A stretch of DNA of 64,000 nt, taken from positions 992,001 through 1,056,000 of the forward strand of contig CBDCDZ010000004.1 in NCBI GenBank assembly GCA_965215565.1. The letters are read 5' to 3'. Every line of letters begins with the position of its first letter. Position 1 is the stretch's first letter. The notes below the pieces were generated by a model. It saw only the letters and a list, made by a program, of their open reading frames with translations, was not told where the DNA came from and ran no database searches. The position numbers and the translations under genes are program-made. Source of the DNA: Trueperaceae bacterium. Lineage in GTDB: Bacteria; Deinococcota; Deinococci; Deinococcales; Trueperaceae. Positions 57,254 through 61,199 of this stretch are shown here, in pieces.

Positions 57254-58771
57254 ATGTCAGCCATCTACCAGCGCGCGCGCCCCATCACCTTCGCTCAAGT
57301 CGTCGGTCAAGACCACGTCAAAAGCGTGCTCAAAGCGGCGTTGGAGCGCGGACGCATCGGTCACGCTTATCTCTTCTCGGGACCGCGCGGCGTCGGCAAA
57401 ACGACGACGGCGCGGCTCTTGGCGATGGCAGTGAATTGCGAGAATGAGGACGTGAGTCAGCGTCCTTGTGGCGAGTGCGAGTCGTGCTTGTTAGTGCGAA
57501 GAGGTAGTCACCCGGATGTCACCGAGTTGGACGCGGCGTCGAACAACTCGGTGGAAGATATTCGCGATTTACGGGAAAAAGTTCGGCTCGCCTCACTTAG
57601 AGGGGGCAAACGGGTGTGGGTTTTGGACGAGGCGCACATGCTGAGTAAGTCGGCGTCGAACGCGCTCTTAAAGACGCTCGAGGAGCCCCCACCCAACCTC
57701 GTCTTCATCCTAGCCACCACCGAGCCCGAAAAGCTCCCGCCGACGATTCTCTCGCGCACCCAGCACTTTCGCTTTCGCAGACTTTCAGAGGGTGAGATTG
57801 CGGGCAAGCTCGAGAGGTTGTGCGCGGAGGCGGACGTCGCGGCTGAGAAGGACGCCCTTACCCTAGTCGCAAAAGCTGCCGACGGCGCGATGCGGGACGC
57901 GGAATCGCTGTTAGAGCGACTTTTGACTTCGGGTGAAGCCATTACCCAAGAGGACGCTGAAGCCGCGTTGGGATTGCCGCCACGGTCGAGATTGCAAGCT
58001 CTGGCGAAGCACCTCGTGGGCCGCGATTTGAACGCCCTTTTCACTGAAGCGAGCAGTCTCTACACTGATGGATTTGCGCCGCGCAGCCTTTCTGAGCGCC
58101 TCAAGCTGACCTTGCGTGAGGCCCTTTACACGTCAGTCGGTTTGGCGGATGACTTTCGCCTAGACGCCGCGCAAGATGACCTCTTGCGCGTCATCCACGC
58201 CCTCGACGACGAGGCGGAGCGCTTTGTCCGCTATGATGACCTCTTCTCACTGGAGGTCTCTCTCATCAAAGCGATGAACGCCCTCTCCGGTAACGCACCG
58301 AGCGACGCCGTGGCGGAACTGCCCGAGCGAGCACCCGCGCCAAATAGAAACGGGGCTGCCGCGCAGCCGCCTACGCGCTCCAGTCTGCCCGACTTCGACC
58401 CCGTCGGACGCACGCCGCCTCAACCTCTTTCAAATGGGGTTTCGAATGGTGCGGCGCGAGTGGCGGAGAGGTCTGGAGAACATGCACCTCAGAATGAGCC
58501 TCGAGCCGAATCCGCACCACCTCCCCGAAAGGTTAACTGGCACAGCGTCCAGAGCAAAGCCAGCGCCCAACTCAAAGCCTTCTTGATGCCCGCCAAGACC
58601 GACATCGAGGGTCAAGATATCTACTTGCGCTTCGCGGACACGCACAAATTTCACTTTTCGCAACTCAAGAGTCGCCAGGGTGAACTCACCTCTCTGGTGA
58701 GCGACGTGCTAGGCGGCGGCTACACGCTGCACATCGAAGGACCGGGGGAGTCGCTTGTAAAAAAGTTGTAG
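57254..58771 (+). CDS. dnaX: DNA polymerase III subunit gamma/tau (zero-frame product)
   Basis: GPRGVGKTT, zinc module, DAAS, DEAH, NALLKTLEEP. Confidence 0.96.
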   Translation: MSAIYQRARPITFAQVVGQDHVKSVLKAALERGRIGHAYLFSGPRGVGKTTTARLLAMAVNCENEDVSQRPCGECESCLLVRRGSHPDVTELDAASNNSVEDIRDLREKVRLASLRGGKRVWVLDEAHMLSKSASNALLKTLEEPPPNLVFILATTEPEKLPPTILSRTQHFRFRRLSEGEIAGKLERLCAEADVAAEKDALTLVAKAADGAMRDAESLLERLLTSGEAITQEDAEAALGLPPRSRLQALAKHLVGRDLNALFTEASSLYTDGFAPRSLSERLKLTLREALYTSVGLADDFRLDAAQDDLLRVIHALDDEAERFVRYDDLFSLEVSLIKAMNALSGNAPSDAVAELPERAPAPNRNGAAAQPPTRSSLPDFDPVGRTPPQPLSNGVSNGAARVAERSGEHAPQNEPRAESAPPPRKVNWHSVQSKASAQLKAFLMPAKTDIEGQDIYLRFADTHKFHFSQLKSRQGELTSLVSDVLGGGYTLHIEGPGESLVKKL

Positions 58772-58797
58772 CGGAGCGTGCCGAGGGGGGCGCTCCG
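58744..58797 (+). promoter_or_regulatory. Putative -1 programmed ribosomal frameshift signal
   Basis: GGGGGAG SD-like motif, A_AAA_AAG at 58759..58765, CGGAGCG/CGCTCCG hairpin 6 nt downstream. Confidence 0.8.
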
Positions 58798-59529
58798 ACC
58801 AAGTCAGTCGAATCTAAGCCAGTCGAACCCAGGCGAGCAGAACCCATCCGGGCTAAGCGTCAACCGAGTGAGCCTCAATGGAACGGGGTTCAACAGGGCG
58901 TAACTCAACAGAGTGAGCCTCGAGCCACCGCTCAGCAAGTGTCTAATCCAGAAGTTAAGCCCACAGCGGCTGAGGTTGAAGCCTCGAGTTCCCCACAATC
59001 AGAACGGAGACAGGTAAAACCGCGCCGCGAACCACCCGGACGCACGCCCGACACGCCACCGCCCCACGTCAATCCCGAAGAAGCCACGCCCAAACCCAAA
59101 GCGATCCCTAGCTCGGAGGCAAAACCTGTTCCCCCTGCTGAAGATGCGCAGCCCGAACGAACCGCGTCTGAGAGTCTTTACGGGGAGGAGTTGCCGCCCG
59201 ACTTTTGGGACAGTGACCCGGTTGCTGATGTCGACGTTCAGTCGGTCACACAAGATGAACCTAGACCGGATGAGGTTGAGTTCGCGGGCTCGGGCCGCTC
59301 CTCTCCAGCTTCACAATCCCTAACGCCACAGCCCGGACCGCAACCCAGGCAAAAGGTTGGCGGGAAGCTCGAAGATGACCCCCGCTTCGCCGTGATGCAG
59401 TCTCTTTTTCCAGGACAAATTGTCGAATGGCAAGAGAGCGAAGAGGTTACAGACGAAGAGGTTAGTGGAGAAGACGCGGACGAACCCAGTGCGGATGACT
59501 CCAACGAAGAGGTTGACGGGTTAAACTAA
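58765..59529 (+). CDS. dnaX: -1-frame C-terminal extension of DnaX (tau-like long form)
   Basis: Frame is open from the slippery site through ORF 58939..59529; Pro/Glu-rich linker then DPRF..MQSLFPGQIV. Confidence 0.75.
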   Translation, partial: VVAERAEGGAPTKSVESKPVEPRRAEPIRAKRQPSEPQWNGVQQGVTQQSEPRATAQQVSNPEVKPTAAEVEASSSPQSERRQVKPRREPPGRTPDTPPPHVNPEEATPKPKAIPSSEAKPVPPAEDAQPERTASESLYGEELPPDFWDSDPVADVDVQSVTQDEPRPDEVEFAGSGRSSPASQSLTPQPGPQPRQKVGGKLEDDPRFAVMQSLFPGQIVEWQESEEVTDEEVSGEDADEPSADDSNEEVDGLN

Positions 59530-59577: not shown

Positions 59578-59889
59578 ATGAACATGCAAAAGCTGATGAA
59601 AGAGGCGCAAAAGGCGCAGAAGAAGATGGCGGAAGCGCAGGAGCGTTTGGCGAACATCTCCGTCGAGGGCAGCGCGGGCGGCGGCCTAGTCACAGCGACC
59701 GCGAGCGGCGACGGCAACATCACGGGCATCAAAATCGACCCGAGCACCGTTGACCCCGAAGATGTCGAGCTGTTAGAAGACTTAGTCGCAGCAGCGGTAA
59801 ACGAAGCCCAACGCAAAGCCAAAGAGGTCCAAGAAGCCGAGATGGGCTCCGCGATGGGTGGCATGGGCGGACTCGGGGGGATGTTTTAA
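59578..59889 (+). CDS. ybaB: YbaB/EbfC nucleoid-associated protein
   Basis: MQKLMKEAQK, GGGLV, LEDLVAAAVN; dnaX-ybaB-recR synteny. Confidence 0.95.
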   Translation: MNMQKLMKEAQKAQKKMAEAQERLANISVEGSAGGGLVTATASGDGNITGIKIDPSTVDPEDVELLEDLVAAAVNEAQRKAKEVQEAEMGSAMGGMGGLGGMF

Positions 59890-59893
59890 GGGA

Positions 59894-59965
59894 GCTATTA
59901 GGTATTAGCAATTAGCGATTAGCGAAATTCAAAAGCTAAGCGCTAAAAGCTAACGGCTAAAAGCT
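59894..59965. repeat. TTAGCNR/GCTAA heptamer inverted tandem repeat
   Basis: TTAGGTA TTAGCAA TTAGCGA TTAGC...GCTAAGC GCTAAAA GCTAACG GCTAAAA; similar short tracts near 28450 and 50505. Confidence 0.7.
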
Positions 59966-59974
59966 GCGTAGCTT

Positions 59975-60565
59975 ATGAAATACCCTCCCGCTTTAATTCA
60001 ACTCATTCGCGAACTCGGGCGGCTCCCCGGCGTCGGTCCTAAGAGCGCCCAGCGGCTCGCCTTTCACCTCTTTAACCAGCCCGAAGAGGACGTGAAGGGG
60101 CTCGCCCAAGCCCTCCTCAACGCTAAAGGCTCGCTTAAACAGTGCGAGGTTTGCTTTAACATCACCGACGAAGAGGTCTGCTCGATTTGTAAAGACGCGC
60201 AGCGCGAGCGTGGGCTTCTCTGCGTCGTCGAAGAGCCCGCTGACCTCTTGGCGATTGAACGCAGCGGCGAGTACGGCGGGCTTTACCACGTCCTGCACGG
60301 CGCACTCTCGCCCATGAACGGCGTCGGACCGGACCAACTCACCATTCAACCTCTCTTGACGCGCCTTAAAGATATCGACGAGGTTATCTTAGCGACGGCG
60401 ACGACGGTGGAAGGGGAAGCGACGGCGATGTATTTAGATAGACTTCTTAAAGACATCGGGGTTAATTCGTCGCGTATCGGCTACGGGCTGCCGGTTGGCG
60501 GGAACTTAGAGTACGCTGACGAGGTCACGCTAGGGCGGGCGATTACGAACCGGCGGATGTTGTAG
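59975..60565 (+). CDS. recR: Recombination mediator RecR
   Basis: LPGVGPKSAQRLA, C4 zinc finger, YHVLHG, EGEATA. Confidence 0.97.
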   Translation: MKYPPALIQLIRELGRLPGVGPKSAQRLAFHLFNQPEEDVKGLAQALLNAKGSLKQCEVCFNITDEEVCSICKDAQRERGLLCVVEEPADLLAIERSGEYGGLYHVLHGALSPMNGVGPDQLTIQPLLTRLKDIDEVILATATTVEGEATAMYLDRLLKDIGVNSSRIGYGLPVGGNLEYADEVTLGRAITNRRML

Positions 60566-60567
60566 CG

Positions 60568-60954
60568 TCACCACCGCGTAGCGACTTCATACTTCCTAAT
60601 GTCTCTGTCAGCAGTAAGGAGCGTCATATTCTCGTATTGCGCTTGGGCAATGAGTAATCGATCAAAAGGGTCACGGTGGTGCATCGGCAAATTTACGACA
60701 CCTTGGCAGTGACCCTTCTCGAGAAACAACCACTTTACGCTATTAGCGACAAGTTCACTATCCAGGGTTCTTTGCCAGTTACCTCTGAGCCCTAACTTAC
60801 CTAAACTCTGTTTAATACAAATTTCCCAGTAGCTTACCGCACTAAGAAACAGTTCGTTATCCGCATCTAAAAAAATTTCTTCCGCTCCTTCACTTAGCCT
60901 ATCGTCGCCTCGGACAAGCCACAAGAAGGTGTGTGTATCGAGCAAGATGTTCAC
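60568..60954 (-). CDS. vapC: PIN-domain VapC toxin
   Basis: LLDTHTFLW, S.WEI..K, HRDPFDRLL.AQA, TAD. Confidence 0.92.
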   Translation of the reverse strand: MNILLDTHTFLWLVRGDDRLSEGAEEIFLDADNELFLSAVSYWEICIKQSLGKLGLRGNWQRTLDSELVANSVKWLFLEKGHCQGVVNLPMHHRDPFDRLLIAQAQYENMTLLTADRDIRKYEVATRW

Positions 60955-61199
60955 TTCGTTTCGTCTTTCGTCTCCATGTACTCCTTGAAATCTTCCAGAG
61001 GCGCATCGAAATCGTCAGACATAAATTCAAAGATATCCTTTGCTCCTCCAATACGCCGCTGCTTGCGAAGCTCAGGAATGACGGTAAGTTTGACGAGTGG
61101 TTTATCGCCTTTTGCAATGATGACCTCTTCACCTGCGAGCGCTTTACGGATAAGTTTGGAAAGGTGCGTTTTAGCTTCGTGAATCGTCACTTTAGTCAT
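60951..61199 (-). CDS. Phd/YefM-family antitoxin
   Basis: IHEAKTHLSKL..ALAGEEVII, DDFDAPL; GTGA overlap with the toxin; TGACTAAGTCA palindrome upstream. Confidence 0.9.
   Translation of the reverse strand: MTKVTIHEAKTHLSKLIRKALAGEEVIIAKGDKPLVKLTVIPELRKQRRIGGAKDIFEFMSDDFDAPLEDFKEYMETKDETK

Follow-up and report, generated by a model that had tools for sequence, protein, structure and literature searches.

In Escherichia coli, dnaX carries the slippery heptamer A_AAA_AAG between an upstream Shine-Dalgarno-like (SD-like) run and a downstream stem-loop, and the cell has a single tRNA-Lys(UUU). The ribosomal shift yields the short gamma subunit, with an efficiency of 50% (Atkins 2016, PMC5009743) or, by another figure, 70-80%; the spacing of SD stimulators of -1 frameshifting is given as 9-14 nt. 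Thermus thermophilus, which has two Lys tRNAs, also obtains gamma by recoding, but from a single open reading frame (ORF) on which RNA polymerase slips at a run of nine A (A9). Transcriptional slippage has been described for nine, and possibly eight, A (Atkins 2016, PMC5009743).

The opposite polarity, in which a stop codon directly past the shift site makes tau dependent on a -1 transition, is already published. Antonov 2013 (PMC3711429) reports 17 such two-ORF dnaX genes in 12 genera, of which 12 contain poly-A runs of A7-A10 and were assigned to transcriptional slippage; Atkins 2016 (PMC5009743) cites unpublished data on a reversed dnaX with E. coli-like stimulators in Chlorobium phaeobacteroides. 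Within Deinococcota, the Deinococcus radiodurans DnaX is described as one 786-aa ORF, the older split being due to a single surplus T in the sequence of the original strain (PMC11219805). Related work on recoding and dnaX includes PMC4703070, PMC6787027 and PMC1088944.

A split dnaX with candidate frameshifting signals

We analyzed a 64,000-nt stretch of a Trueperaceae genome (hereafter, the window), in which the dnaX region is organized as follows.

57254-58771, + strand: dnaX zero-frame ORF, ATG at 57254, 505 aa (~55 kDa), gamma-like by standard decoding
58529-58735, + strand: DnaX_C domain (N-terminal domain of a Thermus-type tau-c), zero frame, just 5' of the shift site
58744-58750, + strand: SD-like GGGGGAG, candidate stimulator; pairing core GGGGG at 58744-58748
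58759-58765, + strand: slippery heptamer A_AAA_AAG (AAAAAAG), in zero-frame phase
58769-58771, + strand: zero-frame stop TAG, one codon past the heptamer
58772-58797, + strand: 3' stem-loop, 8 + 2 base pairs, 6-nt spacer
58765-59529, + strand: -1 frame ORF, 254 codons, Pro/Glu-rich linker and tau C-terminal motifs
59185-59208, + strand: EELPPDFW-type motif, -1 frame, present too in fused Trueperaceae DnaX
59368-59430, + strand: terminal tau motif DPRF..LFPG.V, -1 frame
59578-59889, + strand: ybaB/ebfC, downstream neighbor (Pfam PF02575)
59975-60565, + strand: recR, downstream neighbor (Pfam RecR domains)

Two adjacent ORFs, related by -1 at the DNA level, make up the one dnaX of this genome, in which the high-scoring terminal motif also occurs once. 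The zero frame closes with GTA AAA AAG TTG TAG after 505 codons; the -1 frame runs on to a TAA at 59527-59529, 48 nt 5' of ybaB. Joined, they specify 758 aa (~82 kDa) with the junction SLVKK/VVAER. Residues 1-497 of the zero-frame product match positions 1-497 (of 647) of NCBIfam PRK14963, and residues 426-494 match Pfam DnaX_C (PF20964) at 24.6 bits (E 2.5e-5), just below the cut-off of 26.2; this region also gave a weak match to 4iqj_M in the PDB (E 0.031). The -1 frame ORF has no Pfam or NCBIfam match, and a promoter and terminator scan gave nothing beyond chance level. Elsewhere in this part of the window, short imperfect repeats (attagc, ctaaaagct) lie between ybaB and recR (59895-59975), and a Phd-type antitoxin and PIN-domain gene pair lies directly 3' of recR (60568-61199, - strand).

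The original prediction, made from the bare sequence, had named the in-phase heptamer at the zero-frame end, the SD-like run, a GC hairpin 6 nt downstream and an open -1 frame of 254 codons reaching almost to ybaB. All four are present, and the predicted product lengths of 505 and about 758 aa agree with the two frames. The GGGGG core, 10 nt 5' of the heptamer, pairs at -8.6 kcal/mol with the anti-SD of this very genome, a duplex that stands out against synonymous recodings of the site (p 0.023). The stem-loop starting 6 nt past the heptamer folds at -21.3 kcal/mol, with a z-score that is -3.7 over 32 nt and -2.6 over 45 nt but only -1.2 over 65 nt and +0.1 over 100 nt. Genome-wide we counted 1084 A_AAA_AAR sites, 43 of them preceded by at least 150 open zero-frame codons. 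With thresholds that, like the 150 codons, were chosen after the site had been seen, the dnaX site is the only one of the 43 combining a zero-frame stop within 10 codons with a -1 frame open for 100 codons or more.

We put the probability at roughly 0.86 that programmed -1 ribosomal frameshifting at A_AAA_AAG yields a 758-aa tau, with standard decoding giving the 505-aa gamma-like protein. Since dnaX stops one codon past the A run, full-length tau would arise only upon a slip back by one base. The upstream run and the downstream hairpin likely stimulate this shift, in which two tRNA-Lys would slip back during translocation while the ribosome pauses at the hairpin. By the precedent of E. coli dnaX, the efficiency may lie in the tens of percent, and if the tail binds DnaE, the shift would set the tau:gamma ratio.

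The cassette is conserved across Trueperaceae

Among relatives we collected 120 dnaX loci, 106 of them unique; after removal of 12 that were cut off or broken, 94 rows remained. The split layout with a hairpin occurs in 50 of the 60 dnaX loci of the Trueperaceae clade (support 99), and in 49 of these 50 the stop lies one codon past the heptamer. Their A runs comprise 29 A6G, 18 A7, two A9 and one G_GGA_AAA; read by phase, the heptamers are A_AAA_AAG (30), A_AAA_AAA (19) and G_GGA_AAA (1). The remaining 76,746 nt of these dnaX ORFs hold only 12 A runs of six or more.

The hairpin is similarly persistent. In 47/50 loci a stem of 5 bp or more begins at +5 to +7, as against 267/1250 in-gene control windows (21%), and in 45/50 the 5' arm finds a better partner in its own 3' side than in that of other species. 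An exact complement to GGAGC arms is found in 11/11 loci of that class versus 1/28 of the other four arm classes, and to GGGAC arms in 4/4 of their own; with G-U pairs excluded, the weaker classes GGGGC and GGGGT reach 8/12 and 3/9. SD-like duplexes of -7 kcal/mol or better occur in 37/50 loci versus 7.5% of in-gene controls. They beat synonymous recodings in 42/50 (p≤0.1 in only 12/50), the synonymous mean being -6.0 and the observed mean -7.9, so that the encoded Gly/Glu residues account for part of the signal. Spacing is 9-14 nt in 22 of 40 loci and under 9 nt in the other 18, and 10/50 split loci lack any duplex at -6. Because synonymous recoding keeps much of the duplex and the spacing varies, the SD-like run is family-wide the weakest of the three signal claims.

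In L094 (2587-2638) the heptamer is swapped for G_GGA_AAA, with four A, and the stop and hairpin are unchanged; in L050 (3985-4036) the zero-frame stop has become TTA and nine codons are read on, with the heptamer and hairpin kept. As a separate observation, near codon 62 the dnaX of L092 shows TGA, in frame, at the place of a zinc-finger Cys; an assembly error is the probable cause. The other 10 of the 60 Trueperaceae loci are single ORFs, nine without the signal and one with A9, so two DnaX products are not indispensable.

A signal model built from sequence only and run on 128 family genomes, the training genomes included, matched 55 of them at E<1e-3; G110 counts only towards the total of 128. 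All 20 top matches inspected fall at the end of dnaX, and 14 are new loci; 11 of these carry the tail motif, and the other three are cut, two by contig ends and one by an N gap. Five further genomes were picked for weak scores: G138 has A_AAA_AAG with a hairpin, G111 an A7 variant in which the stop comes two codons on; two others repeated loci already in the set, and the fifth had no match. A loose pattern search over the same 128 genomes was too noisy for use. Taken as a comparative result, the cassette is real and conserved, and very likely functional. Conservation of heptamer and hairpin in Deinococcota, the check named in the original prediction, holds for Trueperaceae and fails for the other families, which have A8-9 or no signal at this place.

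Ribosomal frameshifting or transcriptional slippage

The foremost alternative is that RNA polymerase makes the long product by adding one A, the hairpin acting on the polymerase or being incidental. Slippage has been shown for Thermus and proposed for most two-ORF dnaX genes, and Baranov 2005 suggests productive slippage on eight A in D. radiodurans. Outside the hairpin class, the orthologous site is A8-9 in 25 single-ORF and three split loci, and even among the split Trueperaceae loci 18 have A7 and two A9. Against this, the window has six A closed by G, as do 29 of the 50 loci, and L094 has only four; moreover, the stem is spaced as for a ribosomal stimulator, and the SD-like run is 10 nt away from the heptamer. 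A run of six A is shorter than those on which slippage has been described, and the layout survives with four in L094; both favor -1 ribosomal frameshifting, and we consider polymerase slippage improbable for this gene. Six A are also read in contigs from two runs of one sample, which span the site without a gap; as this sample may be the source of the assembly, the bridging contigs are not independent of it.

A ribosomal shift at A_AAA_AAG also bears on the lysine tRNAs, since the presence of tRNA-Lys(CUU) should lower the slipperiness of this heptamer. This genome has one canonical tRNA-Lys, with anticodon UUU, as in E. coli, where the sole tRNA-Lys(UUU) reads AAG weakly. A second, tRNA-Lys(CTT), called by ARAGORN was rejected as non-canonical, with a Gln/Glu-like body. 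Outside the window, at G000:C4:1412720-1416750 (L155), three tRNA-like genes (Glu-TTC, Gln-TTG and one with a CTT anticodon on a Gln/Glu-like body) cluster around a YrlA match that stays below threshold (37 bits, cut-off 69), and genes for Ro60/TROVE and RtcB follow downstream. The locus likely serves RNA repair, the tRNA-like genes being mimics or substrates.

The canonical tRNA-Lys(CUU) pattern was not found, although the UUU pattern was, in G000, G001, G002, G005, G147 and G148, in genomes of a kind in which tRNAs are often unassembled. All 13 tested genomes from the other four families have tRNA-Lys(CUU), as do 13 of 26 scorable A_AAA_AAG genomes and 13 of 17 A7 genomes. Those 13 A_AAA_AAG genomes carry the UUU tRNA as well, which speaks against extending the single-tRNA argument to the family. 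The survey covered 80 of the 94 loci, the 14 left out all lying outside Trueperaceae. Heptamer type and tRNA-Lys(CUU) showed no significant link (Fisher p 0.12, in a test that treats kin as independent and omits four genomes with neither tRNA).

The -1 frame as the C-terminus of tau

The original prediction took the downstream ORF for the tau C-terminus, and its end agrees: single-ORF DnaX proteins across Deinococcota finish in a short motif that also closes the window's -1 frame. An HMM of this tail, built from 31 single-ORF proteins with eight fused Trueperaceae rows excluded, scores best inside the -1 ORF in 43 of 53 split loci, many of the scores being low. The FPG core motif is found in 47/49 loci and the FW-type motif in 35/49. 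The two loci that lack the FPG core have a second frame break; in L057 and L097 such a break puts the terminal motif outside the -1 frame. The linker between is of low complexity and 76 to 475 codons long among loci. Profile-profile comparison of the tail with the tau C-terminus gave 97.6% (E 4e-12), an optimistic figure because the windows were chosen by motif search and profile A2 holds one Meiothermus row.

Substitution patterns indicate that the -1 frame is under purifying selection. In alignments built on that frame, dN is below dS in 11/11 pairs, which are not independent (nearest pair 0.16/0.65), and constraint is strongest at the terminal motif (0.10/1.70); in shifted frames, dN exceeds dS in 21 of 22 comparisons.

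The terminal helix of tau is reportedly the contact with the polymerase, as Liu is said to have found in 2013. The Taq tau-c chain in PDB 4IQJ, a complex with polymerase, has EKKS at the equivalent point, followed by a linker rich in Pro and, at the end, a helix-strand motif. The Thermus tail was the only tail query to link to 4IQJ; the Meiothermus-type -1 ORF and motif profile A2, searched against PDB sequences, gave no match. By sequence comparison, the window's terminal motif is homologous to the final helix and strand of tau-c in Thermus, and it is likely, as a prediction, the polymerase-binding end. The tau C-terminus is described as binding DnaE (bioRxiv 10.1101/2022.11.10.516041). We also noted that the DnaE encoded at G000:C4:1145066-1150189 (L122) has 1708 aa, as against open frames of ~1225-1400 aa in many relatives, and probably carries an intein.

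The same tail could in principle be made as a free protein, by translation of the downstream ORF from an internal start such as GTG 58939 or by coupling. A 196-aa ORF does begin at this GTG, and 10 of 49 loci have an SD-bearing start codon before the first motif. No start is conserved, however: 12 of the 49 loci lack any ATG, GTG or TTG 5' of the first motif, and the window's single start there has no SD. Separate translation would also leave unexplained the heptamer, the stem and a frame open all the way back to the heptamer, and we judge it quite improbable, still more so than slippage. An assembly error, or a decayed tail that leaves the 505-aa protein as the sole functional DnaX, is the least probable reading of all and already largely refuted by conservation: it could draw on the metagenomic origin of the assembly, the tau-c N-terminal domain kept by the zero-frame product and the low-complexity, length-variable linker, but the identical break recurs in 50 loci and 14 held-out loci, the contigs show six A, and the -1 frame is under apparent purifying selection and retains its motifs.

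One orthologous site in four states

A -1 ribosomal frameshift making tau would set this gene apart from both classical systems. The E. coli shift leads to the short gamma, whereas that in the window would lead to the long product, and the 505-aa protein is not cut at the E. coli gamma point, keeping instead the N-terminal domain of a Thermus-type tau C-terminus. In Thermus, too, the site lies directly past this domain, at a Lys-Lys motif, and the short product likewise keeps the domain without the terminal motif. Unlike Thermus, however, the window has a split ORF in which no single frame encodes tau, six A closed by G rather than nine or eight, and a hairpin, with a likely ribosomal mechanism and recoding that would give tau.

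Of 34 rows outside Trueperaceae, 24 are single ORFs with A8-9, three show a split at A9 and lack a hairpin, and seven have no signal. An HMM of the zero-frame end puts all the A runs, those of Trueperaceae included, directly 3' of the DnaX_C domain, and by its place in the alignment the window's site is the positional equivalent of the Thermus A9 transcriptional-slippage site. The orthologous site thus exists in four states (single ORF with A8-9; split with A9; split with A6-7 and hairpin; without signal), from which we infer that the mechanism likely switched at this one position.

Trees (FastTree and quick IQ-TREE, unrooted) imply at least eight changes between split and single states on the 94 rows. 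Grouping all 33 split-hairpin rows of a 55-row subset was rejected (AU p 1.8e-5), so fused forms are nested among split-hairpin forms. Single ORFs with A8-9 occur in f3 (likely Marinithermaceae), f4 (which holds a Meiothermus) and f5. These occurrences fall on two distinct branches, both outside Trueperaceae, so parsimony takes this state as ancestral, provided that the root is not on the branch leading to Trueperaceae. Of the 17 Meiothermus-clade loci, 12 have a TAG at 10 nt from the first A and 11 have CGG as the next codon; in Trueperaceae a stop lies at 10 nt in 49/50 with CGG next in 46/50. This TAG/CGG spacing is absent from the other families, and in the Meiothermus clade it may reflect retention or convergence. 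Three Meiothermus-type genes (L107, L108 and L114) are split at A9 with a stop directly after and no hairpin. A single base 5' of the A run distinguishes them from sister loci, their monophyly is not rejected (p 0.13), and the splits may be assembly errors.

We tentatively propose, at somewhat less than even odds, that an ancestral A8-9 slippage site in a single ORF gave rise, in the ancestor of Trueperaceae, to a split gene in which the heptamer was shortened to A6-7 and an SD-like run and a hairpin were newly present. The old out-of-frame stop would have been reused as the gamma stop, so that mechanism and polarity both switched. The A9-split Meiothermus genes and the A9-plus-hairpin Trueperaceae genes would be living intermediates, and several lineages would later have fused the frames or dropped the signal. 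If this is true, the ribosomal route would gain from the loss of tRNA-Lys(CUU) in this lineage.

Discussion

The inverted logic put forward in the original prediction holds as a layout and is not new, having been described by Antonov 2013 and Atkins 2016; the 12 genera of the former may bear on the novelty of the Trueperaceae case. Those two-ORF genes mostly have A7-A10 runs; what sets Trueperaceae apart, across the family, is A6G together with a hairpin whose arms covary and an SD-like run. In our literature search, in which few subscription journals were covered, we found no paper on a dnaX shift site in Trueperaceae. Two things go beyond the papers cited here: a signal of ribosomal type across the family, and the four states in which a single orthologous site occurs.

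Trueperaceae therefore offer a family-wide, testable reversed dnaX that apparently uses ribosomal frameshifting, not slippage. Its nearest published parallel of ribosomal type, among the sources cited here, is the unpublished remark on one Chlorobium. A likely essential tau would depend on recoding in these bacteria, and in most of them automated gene calling will yield a truncated DnaX and a spurious hypothetical protein.
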